Shown here piece by piece: positions 6,977-59,662 of a stretch of 64,000 nt of DNA (its first letter is position 1; each line of letters begins with the position of its first letter). The DNA comes from a phage. Both the position numbers and the translations under genes were made by a program. The DNA lies in the NCBI GenBank assembly GCA_025823825.1, contig GCA_025823825.1_4720.1; one strand, 5' to 3'. The notes under the pieces were generated by a model that was not told the DNA's origin, made no database searches, and saw nothing but the letters and a program-made list of their open reading frames with translations.

Positions 6977-7604
6977 TGATACCTTCTATTAGTTGTACAG
7001 CAACTTCTTTTTCGGTGCTATAAAAGAACTTGCGGTGGAACTGAACAAGAAGCTTTTCGAATTTACATTGAACGATCTTTTTGCGTTCGATATGACCCAG
7101 GGAGAGCAAAGCACCCATGCAACGTACCGCTTGTTCGAGAACTTGTTTCGCGGTATCGTGATCGTCCGGTAACGGTAAATCTTCCTCATCGTCTTTAGCG
7201 ATAAGGCGTCTGATGATGTTATCGATACGTATCTCATCACCGTTAATAAAAGCCCCCTTCTCCCAGTCATCGAATCGTTGATGGATTCGACGTTGTAAGT
7301 TGGCTCTGTCTTCCATTAACTCTTTCAACTGGCTTTCTAAGTGGGATACGGTACGGCGGTCGGTTTCAGTGAAGTTTTCCGATTCTTTGTACCACCAATC
7401 ATTACGCGATAGTAAATCGTTAACGCGCGAAATCGTCCGACGACACTCACTAACAAGCCCATCACCATTCGGTAGCTCCGTGCCGAAATAGCATTTGTAT
7501 TTATAACGCATAACACGGATTAAACGTTTCGCTAGAAAACCTTGCCTTTCCAGTTTCTTCTTCAGTTGTGTGTATTTCTCTTCTTTTGTTTCCATTAATT
7601 CCAT
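6963..7604 (-). CDS. hypothetical protein
   Basis: 213 aa ORF. Confidence 0.45.
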   Translation of the reverse strand: MELMETKEEKYTQLKKKLERQGFLAKRLIRVMRYKYKCYFGTELPNGDGLVSECRRTISRVNDLLSRNDWWYKESENFTETDRRTVSHLESQLKELMEDRANLQRRIHQRFDDWEKGAFINGDEIRIDNIIRRLIAKDDEEDLPLPDDHDTAKQVLEQAVRCMGALLSLGHIERKKIVQCKFEKLLVQFHRKFFYSTEKEVAVQLIEGINEVK

Positions 7605-7993
7605 GATGTTGTACCTCGTTCAGCAATCAGGAGAGTCGTGGTTGTGCTTTTCACTAATCTATTAAAGTCTTGATATATCCGCCTGAGGGATGGTTTCAAA
7701 TCACAATAACGGCTGAAATAAACCTTCAAGTCATCTTTTGTCACAGTCTCCGTATTTATTTTCGTAGAAACACCGAGATCGATAAACTCTTTTCTTAATT
7801 GGGATAATTCATCAAGAAGTCGATGGTGGCTTAGATAAATAACAGATTTATCGGATAACAACTCGCCGGTTATCCGGCTCTGGCGTTCATCGAAATATTG
7901 GAGCCGCCATTCAATTCGCTTACGTAATTTATCAAGTAAATCAACAAAAGCGGTATAGCTGTTAACGGCTAGGTTAACTTGACTCGTTATCAT
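7595..7993 (-). CDS. hypothetical protein
   Basis: 132 aa ORF. Confidence 0.4.
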   Translation of the reverse strand: MITSQVNLAVNSYTAFVDLLDKLRKRIEWRLQYFDERQSRITGELLSDKSVIYLSHHRLLDELSQLRKEFIDLGVSTKINTETVTKDDLKVYFSRYCDLKPSLRRIYQDFNRLVKSTTTTLLIAERGTTSWN

Positions 7994-8924: not shown

Positions 8925-9185
8925 TTAATGCAACCGCTTCTCGAAGTCGGTTTTAAGAAGCATCATTCTTTCATCGATAGTATCCAACGCTTTCAGTAAT
9001 GATTTACGTTGTTCTTTCGTAAGCATTTCAGCTCGAAGACGTTCGTTAATTCCCGCTTTAAGCTGTATAGGAAGGGCTTGTGTAAGCACGCTATCAGCTT
9101 CTATCTCGTAACTATTTTTCGGTGGGGGTAATGCTGCAATAACACCAACGAGATAACAACCGACAATAGTTATCCGTTTATCCAT
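8925..9185 (-). CDS. hypothetical protein
   Basis: ORF-track start at 9251 is a GTG inside a hairpin; first ATG at 9185-9183 (MDKRITIVG) used instead. Confidence 0.35.
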   Translation of the reverse strand: MDKRITIVGCYLVGVIAALPPPKNSYEIEADSVLTQALPIQLKAGINERLRAEMLTKEQRKSLLKALDTIDERMMLLKTDFEKRLH

Positions 9186-9265
9186 TGCTTCTAACAGTTC
9201 AGAACTTACTTCATCCACGATAGTCCTCCGTATTAGGGTGGGCGTACCCACCCTCAGTTGTTACT

Positions 9266-10285
9266 TTACACCGCCACCTTGGCCTTGATAGCGGGGTGTG
9301 ATTGATATCCGACGAACACAAAGTCTTCGTAACGGTAATCCGTAATACTTTCTGGTTTACGTACGATTGTTAGCTTCGGTAATGGATACGGCTCACGACT
9401 AAGTTGTTCTTTAACCTGTTCGAAATGGTTGTGATAGATATGACAATCTCCACCTGTCCACACGAACTCACCAACGTCCATATTCAACTGCTGGGCAAGC
9501 ATGTGTGTTAACAACGAATATGAGGCGATGTTGAATGGTGTTCCAAGCAGTACGTCCTGCGATCTTGCTAGCAGCATACACGACAAGGCACGTGTTGGTA
9601 CGTTATGCGCATTCAACCAAAGTTCCGTTTCACTGTGTCGTACATCATCCGTAACCCACTGGGTTCTTAATACGTCGTTGCGTTGAACATAATCAACACG
9701 TTCATCGATCGTGAGCTCGTGGGTATAGAACTGATAGAAACTGTGGCATGCGGGAAGCGCCATATCGTCTAAATCACCTACGTTCCATGCGCTAACGATG
9801 ATTCGTCGAGAATCAGGATCTTCTTTAAGCTGGCGCATCACGTTTGCAATCTGATCGTGATGTTTAACATACACGAGGTGTTTTAGCGTACCGTCATTAA
9901 GAATGCCGCAATACTCGTAACCACGCTGCATCAACTCACGAGTACGCTCTGTATCGTGCGGAACAACCACTTTGTAGTCTATCCATTCCCGCCACTGTCT
10001 ACCGTAAATCGGTCCTAGATTCCCTTCTTCGTCAGCCCACTCATTCCAGATACGAACACCGTTATCTTGAAGATACGCAACATTTGTGTCGCCGTTAAGA
10101 AACCAGAGCAGTTCGTGGATAACGCTCTTAAGGTGAATCTTCTTGGTGGTTACCAGAGGGAATCCTTTCTTCAGGTCAAAACGCATTTGACGTCCAAATA
10201 CGGAACGGGTACCGGTACCTGTACGATCGGCTTTATCGCGACCGTTATCCATGATGTCTTGCAAAAGGTCCAAATACTGTTTCAT
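9266..10285 (-). CDS. thyA: thymidylate synthase family enzyme (ThyA-like; dUMP-specific, possibly a hydroxymethylase)
   Basis: 339 aa; [19 protein letters not shown] (catalytic Cys), [15 protein letters not shown] (Asn, uracil-type), GGDCHIY; longer than typical ThyA. Confidence 0.8.
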
Positions 10286-10485
10286 TTTAATCCTCTAAGT
10301 GTTTCAAGTAGTTCCTGAAATTTGTAACGATATTTAGGATCGCTTAACGTGCAGCAGCAACCATGTAACACGTTATACGCGTAATCGGCTTGTAAACCAC
10401 GAACCTTAGGATCCAATGATAGATTCAATGACGCGCCATCAAAAATCCACGCTTCAATGTTCTTCTTGGATTCCTTCGTTAACAT
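10282..10485 (-). CDS. hypothetical protein
   Basis: 67 aa ORF overlapping thyA start. Confidence 0.35.
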
Positions 10486-10558: not shown

Positions 10559-11440
10559 TCAGTAACAGTTATAATGGGTTCCAAGCCGCTCCGGTTTTCT
10601 CAGAAGACTATCTTTAAGCGGTACGACGTCGATATCAACGTTTTCTGAATAATAACCATTAGAACTACCATACCAACGAATAACAACACATCCTTTTGCT
10701 GTACGAATATGGTAAAATGTCCATCGCGTACGTTTGCAAAAGTCGTCATCCTCGTCTCTTTCCTCGGTTCTTTCTTCAGCGCTAAGTATCTTCTCACCAA
10801 TAATGTCGTTAAGATCGCCATCGATGTCTTCAAGGTACACTTTTTCACAGCAATCTTGCTTATGGCAGAATTCAACAACGTTCCCATCGCCCCGATAGAA
10901 AAGAAGGGCAATGCTGTATTGTAGCTGTTCGGCCGTTAAGTCTGTCGCGCAATACAAACTTTGATCTTCGGTTATCACCAAGACATTGTTGATTACGTGT
11001 CCGGCAAGCGCTCCGATCTTATTTACCGTGATAATCGGACGAACGGGTTCAGGTTGAACGATCGGAATACGAACACAACCAATTAAGGCCATCCGTCCTT
11101 TCTTTGGTCTAACCGCAAGGTAAGGTGATTTTCTTGGGTGGTTATGCAGACGTATTTCTAATTCGTCAAATTTAATCCCGTATATACCTAAGAAACGATC
11201 GAACAACCGATGAAACTCATCTGTTGCTTCTTTCAACGTTATGGTGTCTACCGTGAGTTTATGTCCCCTGAACACCCGGGTTATATCGATAACGTCGAGT
11301 GTTTTAAAATGTATTTCCGTAAGGGGGTGATTTGTATTTTCCAGGTATGTAATGGTTCTTTGAACCGCGATTTTAGGTGACGCACCTTTAAAACGTTTCA
11401 GGTATTTAACACGATAGCGTGTATGATCTGATGTTAACAT
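10559..11440 (-). CDS. hypothetical protein
   Basis: ORF-track N-terminus reads through the upstream hairpin; start set at ATG 11440 (MLTSDHTRY) preceded by GGAGAGGAG. Confidence 0.5.
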   Translation of the reverse strand: MLTSDHTRYRVKYLKRFKGASPKIAVQRTITYLENTNHPLTEIHFKTLDVIDITRVFRGHKLTVDTITLKEATDEFHRLFDRFLGIYGIKFDELEIRLHNHPRKSPYLAVRPKKGRMALIGCVRIPIVQPEPVRPIITVNKIGALAGHVINNVLVITEDQSLYCATDLTAEQLQYSIALLFYRGDGNVVEFCHKQDCCEKVYLEDIDGDLNDIIGEKILSAEERTEERDEDDDFCKRTRWTFYHIRTAKGCVVIRWYGSSNGYYSENVDIDVVPLKDSLLRKPERLGTHYNCY

Positions 11441-11507
11441 TTTAATCTCCTCTCCCGACTTCAGAGAATTCTTAAAATCCGTTAGTTTTGATAGATGAGG
11501 TAAGACG

Positions 11508-11534
11508 GCATAAAAGCCTCCCGTAATGGGAGGC
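11508..11534 (-). terminator. hairpin GCCTCCC-GTAA-GGGAGGC followed on minus strand by TTTTATGCCG
   Basis: Inverted repeat seen directly; sits just downstream of the 11548 stop. Confidence 0.55.
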
Positions 11535-11547
11535 TTCATTAATCAGC

Positions 11548-13521: not shown

Positions 13522-14751
13522 TCACTTCAGAAGCTTAGACACCGCCATGCTTCGCGCCATCGCAACGTCATACGCATCCATGATCGCGTCACCGATAGCG
13601 GTATGACGGATCAACGGAATACCCATGTCTGGATACTCTTTGGTGCCTAAGATGGATACCGGTTTGTCTTGATACGCGGCAATCATCGAACGAATATCCT
13701 GAATCTGGTTATAACGGCAGATTGGTTTGAAGCCTGCCTTACGGAACCAATGTTCTAATTGAGGCCAATCTGTTTCACCACGAGCAAGATAATAGAAGGT
13801 ATCCTTACCGTAGTATTCGGTCATCTCATCACGGATATTGTTAACAAATGCATTTACTGTAGCAATGGCTTCTTTATAGTCCATCACTCCGTCATGCTGA
13901 AAACAATAGTCACGCGCTTCCTTCGGTGCTTTGGTTTGCCACCATTCTACCGTGGACTTACTAATATCACCGCCATCAGCGATTTGACCATAAACGTCGG
14001 GGAAGATATCAATACGTGGGCCGTTAATAACAGATTCTGGATTGACTAGATCGAAGAACAAGATACCGATTTCCAGCAGTACCCCGTTCTTTTCCAGACT
14101 GAGATTCTCCACATCCAGGCAAAACGCAGGTTTCTCTACCGTTGAAAAATCAAAATATTCTTCGAGACGCGGCGTTGGTTCAGCAGCGAGAAACGTCTCA
14201 TGAATGAACTGGGCGAATGTCTTATTCATTGCTACTAAGTCAATACCCAATTTACTTAGCAGAGGTATAATTGCGGGGTCATTCTGCTGTATTACCACAC
14301 ACTCTTGGTTTTTGATACAACGACCAAGTGAGTAAAAAAGATGAACGATGTCTAACGGTTTGTACGGGGCCTCAAATGTTGTTCCCTGGAACGACTGAGC
14401 TAGCACTTTATGTGTTTCTTCACGATGATCTATCAGTTGGAAAATAGCACAGCGCAGATAATGCCGTAATGTTATCTCGTGAAGGTGTGATGTATCTTCC
14501 TGAAATAACGTCATGAAACCGTGATACGTATAATACGCACCTCTTCGAATTTCTTCGAGGAGTTCTTTGTCCCCATTTGTTTCCTCCGATGTTATCGGTT
14601 CCATTTGATCGAGGATAGTGCTGAGAAGGTCACTGCCGTGTACCTTAAACAGTTTTTCAACGTCAAGATTAGGTAATGTCGCGATTGCTGCGTACATTAA
14701 TGTTTCTGCGGGATTAAGTTCTTTATTGTCAATTGTGATGGTTAAAGCCAT
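13522..14751 (-). CDS. DEDDh-type 3'-5' exonuclease domain protein with N-terminal domain of unknown function
   Basis: FCLDVENLS (D-x-E) and HTAIGDAIMDAY (H-x-A-x-x-D-A) in C-terminal half; start at ATG 14751 with GAGG upstream. Confidence 0.6.
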   Translation of the reverse strand: MALTITIDNKELNPAETLMYAAIATLPNLDVEKLFKVHGSDLLSTILDQMEPITSEETNGDKELLEEIRRGAYYTYHGFMTLFQEDTSHLHEITLRHYLRCAIFQLIDHREETHKVLAQSFQGTTFEAPYKPLDIVHLFYSLGRCIKNQECVVIQQNDPAIIPLLSKLGIDLVAMNKTFAQFIHETFLAAEPTPRLEEYFDFSTVEKPAFCLDVENLSLEKNGVLLEIGILFFDLVNPESVINGPRIDIFPDVYGQIADGGDISKSTVEWWQTKAPKEARDYCFQHDGVMDYKEAIATVNAFVNNIRDEMTEYYGKDTFYYLARGETDWPQLEHWFRKAGFKPICRYNQIQDIRSMIAAYQDKPVSILGTKEYPDMGIPLIRHTAIGDAIMDAYDVAMARSMAVSKLLK

Positions 14752-14776
14752 TTTATTATACCTCATCGAAATCAAA

Positions 14777-19516: not shown

Positions 19517-20074
19517 TCACTCCATCCATACTTCTTCGTCGTAATGATTTTCTATCGCATTACGCCAAAAACGTACGGTGTCCAAACTAATCGGTGCATA
19601 AAAATGCTGATCAACGCCTACATTAAGTCCGTTGGCTTTCGCTAACATACAGCGATGAATATGACCGAATAAATTAAAGTAGCCTGGGTTTCTTTCGCTG
19701 GGCTTATGGCATAGCCAGTAGGATTCGTCATTGCTAATCGGCAACACCAACGGATGTTCATAAACCGCAGCAAACCCCATACCGAGCAATTTATCACGCC
19801 ACGCTTCAAAGCTTAATCCTGTCGCTTTGTATGCGTCCTCGTCCCAATTCCCCAATACCAATTGAACCTGGATATCAGAACGAATGGCTTCCACGAACTC
19901 GAACTTACCCCAATCACCTAAATGCCACAACACACTGTTCTTTGGAAGCTTGTTGATGGCTTTCAGCATATGCTGGTTCATATCGGCGACGCTTGCGAAC
20001 GGACGGCGTGAATACGTCCACGTACGCTCGCTATCAAAATGGGTATCCGACATAAAGAAGATGGGTGGGGTCAT
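19517..20074 (-). CDS. calcineurin-like metallophosphoesterase (Ser/Thr phosphatase-like)
   Basis: 185 aa; FMSDTHF, GDWG, GNWD, GHIH motifs in canonical order. Confidence 0.8.
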   Translation of the reverse strand: MTPPIFFMSDTHFDSERTWTYSRRPFASVADMNQHMLKAINKLPKNSVLWHLGDWGKFEFVEAIRSDIQVQLVLGNWDEDAYKATGLSFEAWRDKLLGMGFAAVYEHPLVLPISNDESYWLCHKPSERNPGYFNLFGHIHRCMLAKANGLNVGVDQHFYAPISLDTVRFWRNAIENHYDEEVWME

Positions 20075-20575: not shown

Positions 20576-21262
20576 TTAACACATGATTTCACCATGTTTC
20601 TTTTCGACATACGTATAAACATCATCCAAATAAGCAATGAGTTTATCACGATCCGCACAAAGCGATTTAATCGCCGCAATCTCTTTCATATAAAGCTGCT
20701 GACCTAACGCTGGATACGTAATCCAAGCGTAGCCGTCAGGCGCAAATTTAGAAATAAGATAATCGGCGGTTTCCTGTAATGCGAACTCTTTGCTCATCTG
20801 ACCGTAACGATGTTCGATTGCGCGGATACCAAAACGTTCGCTATCAAGACGACCCATATCCGCCAAACGAAGCACCTGAGAAGCAACCGAACTACGTGGA
20901 CCAGAGTACGAGGCACGATGTTCGGCAATAAGTACGCGTATCTCTTCGATGTCTTCCGGTGTGAAAATATGCTGCTCGTTACGAAGCAGGATAACCGACG
21001 CACGAATACCCCCGATAAGGTGGTGGTAGGTTCTGTTTTCATGGCAAGCGATATCATGCATAAAAGCAGCTGTTAATAGACGGCGGCGTTCGGTAGGTCT
21101 AATAATCCCGACCACATCAGCAAGTTCATTTGCCAGTTCAACAACAGCAAGCACATGTTCTTCTTGATGTGCAAGATCGTTCTTCCGAATATTTTCAATT
21201 ACTTCAGCGCGTGTTTCCTGAGATAAGAAATTTAAACAATCCAACGAATATAAAGATTTCAT
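20576..21262 (-). CDS. HD-domain phosphohydrolase
   Basis: 228 aa; H...HD signature (EEHVLAVVE...FMHDIACHE); AAAGAGG before ATG. Confidence 0.7.
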   Translation of the reverse strand: MKSLYSLDCLNFLSQETRAEVIENIRKNDLAHQEEHVLAVVELANELADVVGIIRPTERRRLLTAAFMHDIACHENRTYHHLIGGIRASVILLRNEQHIFTPEDIEEIRVLIAEHRASYSGPRSSVASQVLRLADMGRLDSERFGIRAIEHRYGQMSKEFALQETADYLISKFAPDGYAWITYPALGQQLYMKEIAAIKSLCADRDKLIAYLDDVYTYVEKKHGEIMC

Positions 21263-46737: not shown

Positions 46738-47113
46738 CTGTTATCGACTATATCTTCATCCTCGTTGCGAGGAGTCTCCCGTTTTGGTCTGTGTTTAACA
46801 GAGCCTACTCTACTCGACATCGCGTCTTTCGATAGTCTGTGAGCACACATCTTAACGAACATTCGTGGATTCCTAAACAGGTGAACGTTCTTGTTGAGAT
46901 GCTTCGCTGCGGATTATTCCCGTCCTACCTCTTTTACCCTACCCAGTTCATTACGCTGGCCCTCATCTGTGTCACCACGATGAGTTGGTGTGTAGTCCGA
47001 TTACAGAAACTTCCCGTCAATTAGAGAGTTTTAACTACGTTCCTGTTACCAGAAACCAGATCCCGACGGTATCAATAAATCAACGTAAGTTATTGATTTA
47101 ATTGAAAAAACTG
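46738..47113 (-). ncRNA. group I intron B (ORF-less), boundaries approximate
   Basis: Minus-strand AATTGACGGGAAG (P), AATCCGCAGC (Q), GCTCACAGACTATCG (R), AAGATATAGTCG (S) in canonical order; GGTAGGGTAAAAG P5-like. Confidence 0.6.
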
Positions 47114-47126
47114 AAATCTGCATTAT
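47114..47126 (-). CDS. proposed 13-nt micro-exon 2 (AT AAT GCA GAT TT, completes Y and encodes NAD)
   Basis: Joining exon 1 ...AAA GGG T to this gives MILKG-YNADF; preceded by G, ends in U. Confidence 0.4.
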
Positions 47127-47492
47127 CTTAATCTTCAGTATGGTTCGCTACTCCATACCCGTACGTCATGTACTGCTTACGTCTTTCACGTAAGAAGAGA
47201 CTATATCTTTCACCCTCAGCATTATCTGGTCGGGGCTCCCATTTCGGCGGTCAGATGACCGGTGGTTTCCCACGCCGCTTGGCCCTAACGCCCGTAAGCG
47301 ATAGTCGTTGAGCGCATCTCCGTTCTGGAGACTTCGCTGCGGATTCCCCAATCCTTGCCGCTTTTACCATACCTGAATGATTAGTTCAGCCCCACGCTCT
47401 GTTCCCAGGCGTGGTTGGTGGACAAGGCTCTAAGTAGGTTCCCGCATTAGAGAGTTCTGCGTGACAACATTTCTGCGTTACTGGGCCTAACG
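47127..47492 (-). ncRNA. group I intron A (ORF-less), boundaries approximate
   Basis: Minus-strand TAATGCGGGAACC (P), AATCCGCAGC (Q), GCTCAACGACTATCG (R), AAGATATAGTC (S); GGTATGGTAAAAGCG P5-like; GCCC near 5' end can pair with exon GGGU. Confidence 0.6.
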
Positions 47493-48735
47493 ACCCTTTC
47501 AAGATCATCACGCTTAACCCGATGGTGTTATCCTGCGGATCGCGTTTAACCTTGGTGATTTCAAGACATTGGTTACTGCTTCGGTCAAGTGATGGGTTTC
47601 GAACAAAGCCACACACAATCCCATCGAACGGTGTATCAGCAATAAGCTCATCGTGCAGCTCGCTCATCATTGGATGATAATTACGGACATGTTCCGCAAC
47701 GAACGCACGTGCTGCTCTCGGTGAATAACCACGATGGAATAACTTGGATTGGATATGTTCTTTATTGGTTAAAGTAAATGGTGCGTATGGGAAATGCAGA
47801 TGATAATAACGATGGTTCGCTGTTATCGAACTGATTACGGTACGCGTGGTGAATGGATGTAATGTACCTAATATGTTTTTACGTGTGATACCTTTCTTCT
47901 TACCAATGAACTCATCGAAAATTGCTGCGTGGTATTGCAGTAGCTTCAATTGCACTTTCGCCATCCAGTTTTCTTTCTTTCTGGCGCTCAAAGGTGTTGT
48001 TGGGTGATAGATACTGTTCAACGTACCAATAGCATCGATCGCACCTTCCATTTTGCTATCTGCATAACGACCGGTTGGCGTATTCTCGATAACGAACATC
48101 ATGGCCGCAGGAAAGCTGATATACTGGCTGAAGAACTTATCACGATGGATACGGATGAATTCTCGTAGCGTGTCAACTTTCTCCGTGTTCTTCGGTCCAC
48201 GTAACGTAGGTCCTTTATACAAGATCTCCATTATGCGATCGAAGTTCTGTATAAAGCTATTTACGCCGCGACGTATCCCGAATACATCGAATTGCTGCTC
48301 CAGATAGTTCTTGAGTTCGATGGGTCGTTTTACATTTGGACGGTAACTGGCATCAATGAGCCACGTCATCGTTTCAAAGCTTTTGATATTCAACTCGCTT
48401 GCCAGCACGAGATGGACCAACGGGTTAATGAACGCATCAATTCCTTCAGGAACACGCGCCCAAACCGTCGAACGAATCTCCTGTTCTGCCGGGTAGGTCA
48501 CGACCGTTTTACAGTTTGGACACACCGTGCCGAGTAGCTCACCACGATTGTAGAAACCACAACCACATTGTGGTGTGATATCCAACGTATCGCTGGAGTA
48601 AACACGGGTGATAAAACTGTTTAATTTCTTCTTCTCTTCGACGACTTTTGTATCGTAATCATTCAACAAAATCGGCGTAAAAGGAAGTTCTGCGAGCTGT
48701 CTATCGAAACTCACGATATCGAGCATGATGGCCAT
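47493..48735 (-). CDS. RNA polymerase beta' N-terminal subunit, exon 1
   Basis: Zinc ribbon CGCG...CPNC, GRYADS, KNILGTLHPFTTRTVIS, RNPSLDRSSNQ in beta' order; ORF ends just before DFDGD would be expected; 35-aa ORF tail is intron read-through. Confidence 0.65.
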
Positions 48736-48827: not shown

Positions 48828-50723
48828 TTAGAACAGGTTGAATGCCCCACCCATGTTGTTAACGCCAACATTCGGACGATCGCTACGTGCGTAGATGTTA
48901 CCGGAGATGTTACCCAGACCACGAGCACGTGCTGCCATGTTACCACGAACAGCGGTACCTGCCAGATGCTGGATGTTCTCAGGACGGATGGTGAAGCCAG
49001 CATCAGCAGCAGCTTCGATCAGCGCCTGCAGTGCTAACGGATCGAAGTCGTAACGCATTGCCCAGCCGGTTTGTTCCCAGCTACCAGACAGAACACGATC
49101 GATGATTTCGTGACGAGCGACAACACGCTGAGACATCGTCATATCGGTACGGTCGAAGCTGTCTTCCCAAGCTTCTACGGTATCCGGGTTAGTGATGTTC
49201 ATCATGTACAGATCGTCCATATCACGAATATCGTGACGGTGACCATCCTGGTGGTTGTAGTGACCCAGCGGGATACGGTTACCGGTAGCGTAGACCAGCG
49301 GTAAGCCGTATTGATATTTCTTGCTGAAGCAACCCAGGGTAACATCATCGAAGGCACGGTAGAGTGCTTTGTAACCTTCAGAGACTTCCCGAACATCAGC
49401 CTCAACATTACCCGTATAGATCTTCTCAGCCGCCGGGATCATACGCAGCAGCCAGCTGTATTCGCCTTCTTCCGGTACGTCGATAGAAATCAGCAGGGAC
49501 GGATACAGTACCTGTTGCAGGAACTTGTAAATCTGCTCATTGGTTTGAGTAGACAGATCCAGCGGTGCGGTAACTTCCGGATCCAGCACCATCGCCAGAG
49601 CACCCGGGTTATGCGGACCGATACCACGAGCAGCGTTGCTGATTAAAGACTGCGCCCATGCCATGCCGCTGTTCAGCGTAGCGATGGTGCCAATCAGACC
49701 CAACACGAAAGTGTTCGGTGTGAACGCATCCAGCTCCAGCGGGTAAGCGCTGGTCATCACGTAACGCGGCTGGTATTGTACAGTCGGCGGTACCGGATAA
49801 CCGTTAACCAGAACAGGGCCTTGGTTGAAGGTCGGGTTCTGCGGGCTGTAAGTCAGGTCAATGTAACCGGTGGTGGCGACCAGACGCTGTTGACTATCGT
49901 AATCGCTCATCGCTTGACGGATGCGGTTAGAGATAGTTACAGTGATGTCAGAACGCACAGGGTTACCAACAATATCGCTGTCCTGCATACCGCTGGTGTT
50001 GTACTGAACGCTGCTGATTGGCTGATCGCTTGCCATCATGCCCAGGTTGAACTGCGGCAGACCCAGTTTATCACCGAGACGGATTTCGATTGCGGTCTGG
50101 ATTGCGTTATCTGCAGCAGACAGCAGGGTGGTCGCCAGATGCGCAGATTCAGCGGTGATTTCATTGGTCACCACAGCCAGACCAGCGATACGAGCAGTAC
50201 CATTAGACTTACCGCCAATAGCTGCATACATTGCCGCCATGACTTCGTTGATGAACGTACCGTTCAGGTTATCAACCCAGGTACGCGGTACCAGAATGTT
50301 ACCATGCGGACCTTGTTCTTCACGACGCGGCAGCGGAGCCAAACCGGCAACCAGCGGAAGCACATAACCGAAGAAGTGGTTATGATCACCAACTTTTGCA
50401 CCACTCATAACGACCAGGGTCGGATACGGTACGCTGTACTGGTTCGGGTCAACCGCAACAAAGATGAAGTCGTCTTTGAACTGGGTATCTTCCAGATATT
50501 TCTCCATCAGACGACGGAGATTCAGTACCTGCTCGGAGCCGGTATTACGGCTGATACGACGGCTCAGTGTACGGTTGATCGTACGCATCGTATGAGTTAC
50601 TTTAGGACGGTCGGCAAAATCTGCAGCGGTTTCCAGCGCCTCATCAGCACGTTGTGCGGTGCGGGTTTCAGCTGCACGAATTTCTACATTATCGTTACCG
50701 TTATTACGTACGTCTAAGCCCAT
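48828..50723 (-). CDS. abundant early protein, candidate phage-nucleus shell protein (chimallin-like); alternative structural protein not excluded
   Basis: 631 aa, strong AGAGGA RBS, promoter motif copy 4 upstream, hairpin downstream; product is inference from context and length. Confidence 0.4.
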   Translation of the reverse strand: MGLDVRNNGNDNVEIRAAETRTAQRADEALETAADFADRPKVTHTMRTINRTLSRRISRNTGSEQVLNLRRLMEKYLEDTQFKDDFIFVAVDPNQYSVPYPTLVVMSGAKVGDHNHFFGYVLPLVAGLAPLPRREEQGPHGNILVPRTWVDNLNGTFINEVMAAMYAAIGGKSNGTARIAGLAVVTNEITAESAHLATTLLSAADNAIQTAIEIRLGDKLGLPQFNLGMMASDQPISSVQYNTSGMQDSDIVGNPVRSDITVTISNRIRQAMSDYDSQQRLVATTGYIDLTYSPQNPTFNQGPVLVNGYPVPPTVQYQPRYVMTSAYPLELDAFTPNTFVLGLIGTIATLNSGMAWAQSLISNAARGIGPHNPGALAMVLDPEVTAPLDLSTQTNEQIYKFLQQVLYPSLLISIDVPEEGEYSWLLRMIPAAEKIYTGNVEADVREVSEGYKALYRAFDDVTLGCFSKKYQYGLPLVYATGNRIPLGHYNHQDGHRHDIRDMDDLYMMNITNPDTVEAWEDSFDRTDMTMSQRVVARHEIIDRVLSGSWEQTGWAMRYDFDPLALQALIEAAADAGFTIRPENIQHLAGTAVRGNMAARARGLGNISGNIYARSDRPNVGVNNMGGAFNLF

Positions 50724-58643: not shown

Positions 58644-58681
58644 AGCGCATCCCCATTCACTTGAACTTTTTTGGTTCGGTG

Positions 58682-59662
58682 TTAGAAAAGCAAGAAACCG
58701 CTGTTCTTCGCTTCTGCTACAGTTTCATCACCAACTTTCGGTGCTTGTTGACGTGCGTTACGATGTTCGATGTAACGTTTCGCTTCGTCAGCGATTTGTT
58801 TGATAATACCCCCTAAACGATCGGTACTTAAAACAAACGACGTCGCTTCACGAATCGGACTGCTTTCAGGCACAAAACCATCACAGCTGTAAATAGCGCT
58901 AACACCCATGACTTTTGTCGCGTCTTTCGGATAAAGCGTACAGAAAGCAATCGGGCTATCGTTCTCTTTCGTCCAATCGTATCCCATGAACGTATTCAGT
59001 TCGGTAATCGTTGGTTCCAAACCGGTAACACGTGGATGGTTTAAGAAGTTTTCCAGGTCGGCGCTGTCAAGACGGCGGTTCTCGCCAGAAAACAGAACAC
59101 AAAGCTGGCTAATAACAACCTGGACGTCCAGGTTGACATCCTGCTCCGATTTCCCATTTTCGCCATTCATGTGATAGCTAACAATCACCGGACGTTTCAA
59201 TCCTTCTGCAGCTGCCATCAGTCCTTTAAAGGTACGATCGGCGTTGATCGTTTGACGCTCATCATCGAACGAGGCAACGATGCAACATACCACACGTTCA
59301 CCACGTTCCAGCAGGTTAGCAACCAACGCAGGACCGGCAACAGAACCTGAACCACCGCTCAAACTAAAGACCACGATATTAAATTTACCTGGCGTATGCT
59401 TATTGAGAATACCTGGGATTTGCGAGCAGATCAGTTCAGCGTTCTCGTCGCGCTTCTTACCAGAACCGTCTAACTCACGACCGGCCGCATCTTTAAAGAT
59501 GTAAATATGATCGTCGTCCAGTGTGCTATCGCGTAGGTTAGCGCGGCTGGTATCAACATACGTCATGCTGTGTAATCCTTTCGCGACTTCGCCTTCAAAT
59601 GCTGAGCCGATTTCGCCACCACAACCACCGACAGCCCAAATATGTACTTGGTTCTCTTGCAT
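58682..59662 (-). CDS. phuZ: tubulin/FtsZ-like GTPase (PhuZ-like phage tubulin)
   Basis: 326 aa; VGGCGGEIG and SLSGGSGSVAGPA glycine-rich GTP-binding loops. Confidence 0.7.
   Translation of the reverse strand: MQENQVHIWAVGGCGGEIGSAFEGEVAKGLHSMTYVDTSRANLRDSTLDDDHIYIFKDAAGRELDGSGKKRDENAELICSQIPGILNKHTPGKFNIVVFSLSGGSGSVAGPALVANLLERGERVVCCIVASFDDERQTINADRTFKGLMAAAEGLKRPVIVSYHMNGENGKSEQDVNLDVQVVISQLCVLFSGENRRLDSADLENFLNHPRVTGLEPTITELNTFMGYDWTKENDSPIAFCTLYPKDATKVMGVSAIYSCDGFVPESSPIREATSFVLSTDRLGGIIKQIADEAKRYIEHRNARQQAPKVGDETVAEAKNSGFLLF

Follow-up and report, generated by a model that had tools for sequence, protein, structure and literature searches.

The nearest solved relatives of the protein described here, found by a phmmer search of the PDB, are the chains of E. 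coli thymidylate synthase (ThyA; PDB 2TSC, 1TYS), with E about 1e-112. A phage member of the same family, the td thymidylate synthase of T4 (286 aa), owes its greater length relative to E. coli ThyA to surface insertions, which lie after helix C, near E. coli position 85, and near the C-terminus. These insertions were reportedly proposed by Finer-Moore et al. in 1994 as contact sites for the dNTP-synthetase complex. The human and other eukaryotic thymidylate synthases have the same catalytic core, an N-terminal extension, and, in an alignment with the human sequence, a 12-aa insert at the loop that corresponds to E. coli 101-107.

The family also includes enzymes with a different chemistry. 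For example, SPO1 gp29 (383 aa) and M6 gp58 (351 aa) are validated dUMP hydroxymethylases, and T4 gp42 is a dCMP hydroxymethylase. Jumbo phages carry ThyA homologs as well, including Goslar gp141, 201phi2-1 gp350, the phiKZ gp235-like proteins, and the SPN3US protein (ACQ60_gp037, named gp100 in PMC5694885), all annotated as thymidylate synthases. The literature searched holds no biochemical or structural characterization of the jumbo-phage ThyAs that share the two insertions discussed below. As judged from its sequence, the gene described here very probably encodes a thymidylate synthase of the conventional, folate-dependent kind (ThyA, EC 2.1.1.45) and not a hydroxymethylase; the phage is a Goslar-like jumbo phage of the nucleus-forming type.

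The gene and its surroundings

The window, meaning the whole 64-kb stretch of DNA that was analyzed, belongs to a phage closely related to Escherichia phage Goslar. The enlarged ThyA-family protein of the preliminary description is indeed encoded at 9266-10285, as an uninterrupted ORF of 339 aa in the ORF list; the strand, which had not been given, is minus. The N-terminus, MKQYLDLL, aligns to residue 1 of E. coli ThyA. The features of the locus are these:

9266..10285, minus strand: thyA coding sequence, 339 codons plus a TAA stop at 9266-9268 (ORF list, profile matches, Goslar gp141)
10291..10295, minus strand: Shine-Dalgarno GAGGA, 5 nt before the thyA ATG, read from the sequence
10282..10485, minus strand: 67-aa ORF, hypothetical, homolog of Goslar gp142, upstream of thyA and transcribed in the same direction
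9983..10285, minus strand: core block 1, residues 1-101, with R21, K48, H51, E58, I79, W80, W83, and Y94 (phmmer alignment)
9866..9982, minus strand: insertion 1, residues 102-140, 39 aa where E. coli ThyA has residues 102-106
9722..9865, minus strand: core block 2, residues 141-188, with R160/R161 (= R126'/R127'), L177 (= L143), C180, and H181 (= H147)
9746-9748, minus strand: codon of the catalytic C180, within core block 2
9590..9721, minus strand: insertion 2, residues 189-232, 44 aa where E. coli ThyA has the tight hairpin turn A155-D156-G157
9269..9589, minus strand: core block 3, residues 233-339, with R241 (R166), S242, D244 (D169), L247, G248, F251 (F176), N252 (N177), H282 (H207), Y284 (Y209), and the lid
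9530-9532, minus strand: codon of N252 (= N177), within core block 3
13522-14775: 3'-5' exoribonuclease-like protein, within about 11 kb of thyA
19517-20074: metallophosphoesterase, within about 11 kb of thyA
20576-21262: HD-domain protein, within about 11 kb of thyA

The thyA ATG and the TGA stop of the upstream 67-aa ORF share 4 nt (ATGA), and this overlap suggests that translation of thyA may be coupled to that of the upstream ORF. The latter is 95.5% identical to Goslar gp142 (tblastn), and a Pfam search with it gave no match.

The three listed neighbors bear out, loosely, the earlier remark that nucleotide-metabolism genes lie nearby. No thymine-modification kinase or transferase turned up when the window and the genome of Goslar, the sister phage, were searched with tblastn. 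The Dam methylase said to be close by is a D12-class N6-adenine methyltransferase, encoded at 1871-2698 on the minus strand (E=2e-60). Dam methylates adenine, and its gene has no bearing on thymine chemistry. The Dam gene is a strain-specific insertion and is missing in Goslar.

Along its length, the protein follows the 264-aa E. coli ThyA in three collinear blocks, with residues 1-101 matching E. coli 1-101, residues 141-188 matching 107-154, and residues 233-339 matching 158-264, so that the two N-termini and the two C-termini coincide. Two insertions that the E. coli enzyme lacks stand between the blocks, 39 aa in place of 5 and 44 aa in place of a 3-residue hairpin turn. The net gain of 75 residues agrees with the earlier estimate of an excess of 50-75 aa, brought about by insertions between conserved blocks.

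Thymidylate synthase or hydroxymethylase

The protein matches the thymidylate synthase family PF00303 over profile positions 1-266 of 266 (E=6.9e-114, 379.9 bits, where the cut-off is 24.3 bits). Four NCBIfam equivalog models for thymidylate synthase also score it above their curated cut-offs: NF002497 (415.8, cut-off 327), NF002499 (415.6, cut-off 405), TIGR03284 (357, cut-off 108.35), and NF002496 (340.3, cut-off 325). Its core is 69% identical to that of E. coli ThyA over 256 columns. An AlphaFold model has a mean pLDDT of 94.9 and a pTM of 0.92, and Foldseek aligns the predicted core to the E. coli enzyme with E=4e-42 and a TM score of 0.96 normalised to the target. In a neighbor-joining tree of the core columns, the protein falls next to E. 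coli ThyA and the hydroxymethylases form a long separate branch; the tree is star-like, and the clade with two insertions has no resolved monophyly in it. Compared with Goslar gp141, to which the whole protein is 96.8% identical, the core differs at 41 codons synonymously and at 3 non-synonymously, which indicates that it is under strong purifying selection.

The residues needed for the reaction can be followed one by one. Both motifs pointed out earlier are found, namely, the catalytic Cys in L-P-A-C180-H-S-F-Y-Q-F-Y and the uracil-specifying Asn in P-F-N252-I-A-S-Y. The P-C-H-type Cys, the phosphate-binding Arg quartet, and S167 are kept (C180-H181, R21, R241, R160, R161, S242), as are the equivalents of N177, D169, H207, and Y209 (N252, D244, H282, Y284) and the folate cage and hydride-transfer set (I79, W80, W83, L177, L247, G248, F251, Y94, E58). 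The C-terminal lid ends in K-V-A-V339, where the ThyA lid reads ...V-A-[IV]-COOH. The residues checked at the dUMP, folate, and lid sites all match E. coli ThyA or differ from it conservatively, and among 27 substrate, cofactor, and lid positions, only the naturally variable Q165 and N76 depart from the thymidylate synthase residue. When the comparison is widened to the 62 columns that are at least 90% conserved across 45 other ThyAs, the protein keeps 61, and the sole exception is P145A within "LPACH."

Q165, like P145, is replaced by Ala; in the SPN3US-like proteins the residue is Met. In canonical enzymes, as the L. casei literature describes, Q165 hydrogen-bonds to N177. A role for Q165A as a specificity switch was considered and rejected, because 13 of the 50 ThyAs compared, insert-free ones among them, have M, A, or I at that position, and the change is therefore not special.

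The preliminary description had asked whether the enzyme is a thymidylate synthase or a dUMP hydroxymethylase that feeds thymine hypermodification. The ThyA-family assignment stands, and the hydroxymethylase reading was rejected: identity, signature residues, position in the tree, and the sites of the added residues speak against it, as do the equivalog scores and the failure of tblastn to detect pathway genes in the window or the Goslar genome. SPO1 gp29, M6 gp58, and T4 gp42, taken from their genome records, served as comparators. The protein shares with them the superfamily fold, the Cys nucleophile, R166/S167/D169, H207/Y209, Y94, and E58, and the dUMP hydroxymethylases keep Asn177 as it does (N252). 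However, its identity to SPO1 gp29 and M6 gp58 is only 23-24%, and to T4 gp42 25%, and each of the three keeps 28 of the 62 ThyA-conserved columns. The hydroxymethylases have lost W80 and carry W83F/Y, L143D, H147N (T in T4), L172W, and F176A, whereas the protein has the thymidylate synthase state at each of these positions. The extra length also differs in kind: in the hydroxymethylases it lies C-terminal of the H-x-Y motif, and a long helical extension takes the place of the lid, while here the lid is kept and the added residues make up insertions 1 and 2. Against a dCMP hydroxymethylase of the T4 gp42 type stand the 25% identity and position 177, which is Asp (D179) for cytosine specificity in T4 gp42 and N252 here.

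For genes of a 5-hydroxymethyluracil (hmU) pathway, the window and the complete Goslar genome were searched by tblastn, and the Goslar annotation was used as well; the queries were M6 gp51, gp52, gp53, gp54, and gp65, SPO1 gp21.8 and gp22.1, and T4 gp56. With this small set, which distant analogs may escape, nothing was found at E<0.1 for the M6 5-HMUDK, AADT, PLP decarboxylase, and radical-SAM enzyme, the M6 and SPO1 dCMP deaminases, or the T4 dCTPase; in these two sequences, tblastn likewise detected no dUTPase/dTTPase or DHFR homologs. Outside the window, Goslar gp215 weakly resembles (E=1.6e-4) M6 gp55, the helical-domain partner of the 5-hmdU DNA kinase. This candidate resolved to a best match with DUF488, a widespread domain that the title of a 2025 preprint ties to the ParB-CTPase fold. 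SPN3US gp36, encoded directly downstream of the SPN3US thyA, was considered as a DHFR and had no match in a Pfam search.

The two insertions

According to the AlphaFold model, the extra 75 residues form two independently folded surface insertions placed at length-tolerant loops, E. coli 101-107 and the hairpin turn 155-157. Insertion 1 is predicted to consist of a strand (101-107), a helix (112-120), and two strands (124-130 and 135-143), with mean pLDDT per 10-residue block of 93-96 over residues 101-140. Insertion 2 is predicted to be a three-helix unit (193-202, 204-212, 217-226), with block means of 93-97 over residues 191-230. No solved thymidylate synthase structure has the two insertions. 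The eukaryotic loop insert is much shorter than insertion 1, and nothing is inserted at the 155-157 hairpin in those enzymes; the T4 td insertions, being at other sites, are not a precedent for either.

The same two sites are occupied in the enzymes of Goslar, SPN3US (about 60% identical to the protein), 201phi2-1, and the phiKZ type, and the architecture recurs in Erwinia, Cronobacter, and PA1C jumbo phages and in many metagenomic clusters. It is kept across hundreds of phage genomes and has been passed down within a large group of jumbo-phage ThyAs, so diverse that core identity falls to about 50%. In a structural comparison, 201phi2-1 gp350 matches with a TM score of 0.92 normalised to the query, the inserts superposing too. 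Lengths vary. Insertion 1 ranges from 19 to 57 aa and insertion 2 from 27 to 54 aa, and in PA1C insertion 2 is 73 aa. Enzymes of the phiKZ type reach 457-476 aa, an N-terminal extension of about 136 aa is present in P0121, a metagenomic relative, and some ThyAs carry insertion 2 alone.

Mean pairwise identity is 13% in insertion 1 and 21% in insertion 2, compared to 52% in the core. Insertion 1 is the fastest-evolving part of the protein; relative to Goslar it has 8 synonymous and 7 non-synonymous changes, and insertion 2 has 3 and 1. Insertion 2 is bounded by conserved motifs, QFYt-E-[LM]-[TS]-x-x-E-R at its start and [VI]-P-x-[RYH]-x-L-S at its end. When searched in isolation, the inserts matched no Pfam family, even at E<=10. 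An origin as foreign or mobile DNA, or as remnants of introns or inteins, was rejected, as the ORF is unbroken and inserts and core have the same GC content (0.46); neither insert comes near the length of an intein, and an Rfam search of the window gave no matches. The inserts differ in length and are far more divergent than the core, which makes it most likely that they are appendages serving structure or interaction and leave the chemistry unaffected; we infer a non-catalytic role for them.

Proposed reaction and competing explanations

As a conventional thymidylate synthase, the enzyme would act as follows. C180 would attack C6 of dUMP, and the methylene group of 5,10-methylene-THF would be passed to C5. 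Y94, E58, and H181 would aid proton abstraction, and the exocyclic methylene would become the methyl group by hydride transfer from C6 of tetrahydrofolate under the closed C-terminal lid and the folate cage of W80, W83, L177, and F251. The products would be dTMP and dihydrofolate. Because R160/R161 are kept, an obligate dimer is expected, in which this Arg pair would reach into the partner's active site. The dTMP would be phosphorylated by a phage thymidylate kinase such as the one encoded by Goslar (Pfam, 97.6 bits), and the dihydrofolate would presumably be recycled by the host FolA, because no phage DHFR was detected. These steps, the dimeric state, and the use of FolA are read from conserved residues and gene content.

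In a dUMP hydroxymethylase, the exocyclic methylene would instead be hydrated to give 5-hmdUMP, which would enter DNA and be hypermodified there. One could consider this reading because the validated dUMP hydroxymethylases are likewise enlarged ThyA homologs with the Cys and the Asn, because hmdUMP might in principle be a substrate of a phage "thymidylate kinase," and because of the weak resemblance of Goslar gp215 to the M6 HMUDK helical-domain protein. It is nevertheless extremely improbable, given the low identity to those enzymes, the missing signature substitutions and C-terminal extension, the different place of the extra length, the equivalog scores, and the kinase domain, AADT, dCMP deaminase, and dUTPase/dTTPase that tblastn with a few queries did not detect. 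An indirect argument against it comes from the DNA itself: several restriction enzymes hydrolyze Goslar DNA (PMC6563267), and the virion DNA of phiKZ, a distant relative, is cut in vitro by HindIII, EcoRI, KpnI, NcoI, and Cas9 (bioRxiv 10.1101/370791). A degenerate, inactive ThyA whose fold is disrupted by the insertions is just as hard to credit. Insertion 2 does break into the beta-hairpin of the central sheet, a region that forms the dimer interface in canonical ThyA structures. However, the catalytic and binding residues are all intact, the core evolves under strong constraint, the predicted structure retains a full ThyA core from which the insertion projects at the hairpin turn, and the architecture persists in hundreds of phage genomes.

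A further proposal is compatible with the preferred reading of an active thymidylate synthase and adds to it a role borne by the inserts, such as docking into a dNTP complex (e.g., with the phage Tmk), tethering to the nucleus shell, or a regulatory or RNA-binding function. Confident folding over most of both inserts, their retention and superposition in a very diverse clade, the conserved boundaries and the 3 to 1 ratio of insertion 2, and the reported proposal for the T4 insertions, though at different sites, speak for such a role. Against it stand the poor conservation and variable length of the insert sequences, the relaxed constraint on insertion 1, the forms with insertion 2 only, the lack of a Pfam family, and the absence of a known partner. 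On balance, the added role is unlikely, but more probable than either of the two readings above.

For phage biology, the result is mostly a negative one: an oversized ThyA is no ground for listing this lineage among candidate thymine-hypermodifying phages. Thymidylate synthases cannot be told from hydroxymethylases by length alone; W80, W83, L143, H147, L172, F176, and the C-terminal lid separate them cleanly here. What the jumbo-phage ThyAs do have in common is a pair of folded insertions, each about 40 aa long, which are missing from every solved thymidylate synthase. If these are interaction surfaces, they would bear on how nucleotide supply is organized outside the phage nucleus in nucleus-forming phages. 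A more specific and slightly more doubtful idea is that they are a docking module of the jumbo-phage lineage, which would assemble a cytoplasmic dTTP-synthesis complex (ThyA and the phage Tmk) or anchor such a complex at the phage-nucleus shell; if so, nucleotide supply would be coupled to the enclosed replication compartment. In PhiPA3, a thymidylate synthase-GFP fusion was kept out of the phage nucleus (PMC9067925).

The thyA gene and its phage

The enlarged ThyA-family protein of 339 residues very probably carries out conventional ThyA chemistry, in which dUMP and CH2-THF are converted to dTMP and dihydrofolate. The preliminary description had placed a ThyA-family gene at 9266-10285 without giving a strand, and an uninterrupted reading frame lies there on the minus strand. 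PF00303 covers the protein over the whole profile (E=6.9e-114), and it scores above the curated thresholds of four NCBIfam equivalog models for thymidylate synthase. Also, the catalytic-cysteine and uracil-specifying asparagine motifs quoted earlier are both found, as LPAC180HSFYQFY and PFN252IASY. A GAGGA Shine-Dalgarno sequence, read directly, lies 5 bases 5' of the ATG, which shares an ATGA with the stop codon ending an upstream 67-aa ORF, so that the two genes are probably translationally coupled.

Features of the window
9266-10285, minus: thyA, 339 codons (ORF list)
about 48830-50720 and about 58680-59660: chimallin and PhuZ tubulin genes, projected from Goslar sequence L005 via a blastn map
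1871-2698, minus: D12-class N6-adenine DNA methyltransferase (Dam-like), PF02086 E=2e-60
7595-7993, minus: 132-aa ORF, no Goslar counterpart

At the DNA level, the thyA region shares 93% identity with Escherichia phage vB_EcoM_Goslar, and its protein product shares 96.8% with Goslar gp141, an annotated thymidylate synthase; by this comparison, thyA is nearly identical to a previously annotated phage gene. The remaining window is collinear with Goslar across the genes for chimallin (the nuclear shell), PhuZ tubulin, the multi-subunit RNA polymerase, and DNA polymerase, which indicates as the source a nucleus-forming jumbo phage of the Chimalliviridae type, a close relative of Goslar.

An 8-bp GC-rich hairpin (9235-9254, minus; arms AGGGTGGG and CCCACCCT, loop TACG) begins 12 nt past the thyA stop codon and overlaps the GTG called mechanically as the start codon of the following ORF (8925-9251). 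It was rejected as a classical intrinsic terminator because no T-run follows it.

Synthase or hydroxymethylase

The size of the protein had raised the question of dUMP hydroxymethylation, and the validated dUMP hydroxymethylases SPO1 gp29 and M6 gp58 are likewise long (383 and 351 aa). However, their added length sits on the C-terminal side of the H-x-Y motif, where it replaces the C-terminal lid, and nothing is found at either site where the phage protein is expanded. The sequences of these two enzymes and of the dCMP hydroxymethylase T4 gp42, taken from genome records and aligned with the query, are only 23-25% identical to it, whereas core identity between the query and E. coli ThyA is 69%. 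In a neighbour-joining tree of core columns, the query sits beside E. coli ThyA and far from the hydroxymethylase branch. These comparisons make a dUMP hydroxymethylase very improbable.

Residue states (E. coli position; query; SPO1 gp29 and M6 gp58)
R21, E58, I79, Y94; kept; R21, E58, Y94 kept, I79 to Met
W80; W80; absent (gap)
W83; W83; F in SPO1, Y in M6
R126', R127'; R160, R161; SPO1 R139, Q140, M6 R130, R131
L143; L177; D
C146; C180; kept
H147; H181; N
R166, S167, D169; R241, S242, D244; kept
L172; L247; W
F176; F251; A
N177; N252; kept
H207, Y209; H282, Y284; kept
C-terminal lid V-A-I; V-A-V, protein end; no lid, C-terminal extension

T4 gp42 differs in having T at 147 and D at 177. Conservation in 45 other ThyAs reaches 90% or more at 62 alignment columns; the query retains 61 of these and the three hydroxymethylases 28 each, and the sole deviation of the query is P145A (LPACH versus LAPCH). 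Position 165, Q in E. coli, is Ala in the query. In the L. casei enzyme, Q165 serves to orient N177; since 13 of the 50 ThyAs compared have M, A, or I here, Q165A is not diagnostic. Core codons differ from Goslar at 41 synonymous and 3 non-synonymous sites, pointing to an enzyme under strong purifying selection.

Two insertions in the ThyA fold

Aligned by HMMER with E. coli ThyA (264 aa), the query falls into three collinear blocks, so its 75 extra residues form two discrete insertions.

Core blocks (query; E. coli)
Block 1: 1-101; 1-101
Block 2: 141-188; 107-154
Block 3: 233-339; 158-264

Insertion 1 (residues 102-140) puts 39 aa in place of the 5-residue loop 102-106 of the E. coli enzyme, and insertion 2 (residues 189-232) puts 44 aa in place of a 3-residue turn (155-157) in the hairpin after the catalytic-Cys strand. 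Both have the GC content of the core (0.46), and neither matched a Pfam family when searched in isolation. In an AlphaFold2 model built from a 26-sequence alignment (mean pLDDT 94.9, pTM 0.92; 10-residue block means of 93-97 across most of both insertions), insertion 1 is a strand, a helix, and two strands (E101-107, H112-120, E124-130, E135-143), and insertion 2 is three helices (H193-202, H204-212, H217-226). On E. coli thymidylate synthase, the modelled core superposes with a TM score of 0.96 when the target is used for normalisation and of only 0.75 when the query is, and no entry in a PDB structure search covers either insertion. The 201phi2-1 thymidylate synthase in a viral predicted-structure library reaches 0.92 normalised to the query, so this match extends over the inserts too.

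A tblastn search with residues 96-240 (both insertions and the core block between) matched 2,543 phage records, only 141 of them with at least 80% query coverage. Among the matches listed, those at this coverage are jumbo phages of 237-316 kb, namely Goslar, Erwinia phage Asesino, and Pseudomonas phages 201phi2-1, PA1C, and RVTF4; in T4-like and other phages, the alignment is limited to the core block. With the full-length protein as query, SPN3US-like, Erwinia, and Cronobacter CR5 phages are found as well (56-62% identity, 100% query coverage). Many more two-insert ThyAs of metagenomic origin (308-367 aa), several of them encoded on contigs of 60-370 kb, came from an exhaustive HMMER search over 50%-identity cluster representatives. 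ThyAs with insertion 2 only also exist, one being a RefSeq protein on a 295-kb contig of an Ectothiorhodospira assembly. The phiKZ-type relatives are longer (457-476 aa; 201phi2-1 gp350 at L010:2359-3732, and PA1C ThyA at L011:2395-3825, with a 73-aa insertion 2), and the metagenomic P0121 has an N-terminal extension of ~136 aa besides both insertions. T4 td differs, having its insertions at other sites. Insertion 1 occupies what we take, from aligning the human sequence, to be the loop with a 12-aa insert in human thymidylate synthase.

Among ThyAs with both insertions, core sequences share on average 52% pairwise identity, insertion 1 (19-57 aa) 13%, and insertion 2 (27-54 aa) 21%. Insertion 2 retains a start motif, QFYt-E-[LM]-[TS]-x-x-E-R, and an end motif, [VI]-P-x-[RYH]-x-L-S. 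Constraint is weakest in insertion 1, where 8 synonymous and 7 non-synonymous differences separate the query from Goslar. Poor sequence conservation and differing lengths speak against a part in catalysis, but the insertions have persisted, fold confidently in the model, and keep conserved ends, which would allow for a putative structural or protein-docking function. We interpret the insertions as lineage-specific folded surface elaborations at two length-tolerant loops. What is under-described is jumbo-phage ThyAs with two insertions, predicted to be structured, that are absent from all solved structures; no mention of such insertions was found in the literature searched.

Nucleotide metabolism, DNA modification, and differences from Goslar

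The window and the complete Goslar genome were searched by tblastn at a threshold of E=0.1, and neither matched the M6 5-hmdU DNA kinase, amino-acid:DNA transferase, PLP decarboxylase, or radical-SAM enzyme, the M6 and SPO1 dCMP deaminases, SPO1 gp22.1, T4 dCTPase, or E. coli FolA. Goslar encodes a thymidylate kinase (gp008); DHFR and ribonucleotide reductase are neither annotated nor detected in the window or Goslar. The lack of a DHFR would leave dihydrofolate from ThyA to be recycled by the host. Several restriction enzymes hydrolyse Goslar DNA (PMC6563267), and phiKZ virion DNA is cut in vitro by HindIII, EcoRI, KpnI, NcoI, and Cas9 (10.1101/370791). The PhiPA3 phage nucleus excludes a thymidylate synthase-GFP fusion (PMC9067925).

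One weak signal lies outside the window. M6 gp55, itself a match to the 5-hmdU DNA kinase helical-domain family, hits Goslar gp215 (tblastn E=1.6e-4), a 137-aa hypothetical protein (Goslar sequence L008:10817-11230) whose best Pfam match is DUF488-N3a (E=3e-9). DUF488 is a widespread domain, linked to the ParB-CTPase fold in the title of a 2025 preprint. No kinase-domain homologue of the 5-hmdU DNA kinase was found in the window or the complete Goslar genome.

The Dam methylase noted nearby in the preliminary description is indeed encoded, and its product methylates adenine. The ~850-bp segment holding it (about 1864-2713) has no Goslar counterpart, and its flanks, 92% identical, abut in Goslar; the gene looks like a strain-specific gain. 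The flanks of a ~400-bp window-specific segment (7594-7989), with the 132-aa ORF, abut there as well. A further inserted ORF of 326 aa (10559-11539, minus), with a C-terminal DUF7448 domain (E=2e-24), separates the thyA operon from the gp143 homologue; Goslar has only the first 30 codons of this ORF. At 46739-47495, adjoining the RNA polymerase beta' gene, the window is without a ~1-kb Goslar segment holding the HNH endonuclease gene gp186, and 368 bp at 47127-47494 are absent in Goslar. At the gathering threshold, Rfam reported no family across the whole window, 46741-47126 included; this last stretch is 98% identical to one annotated as a group I intron in the Goslar record.
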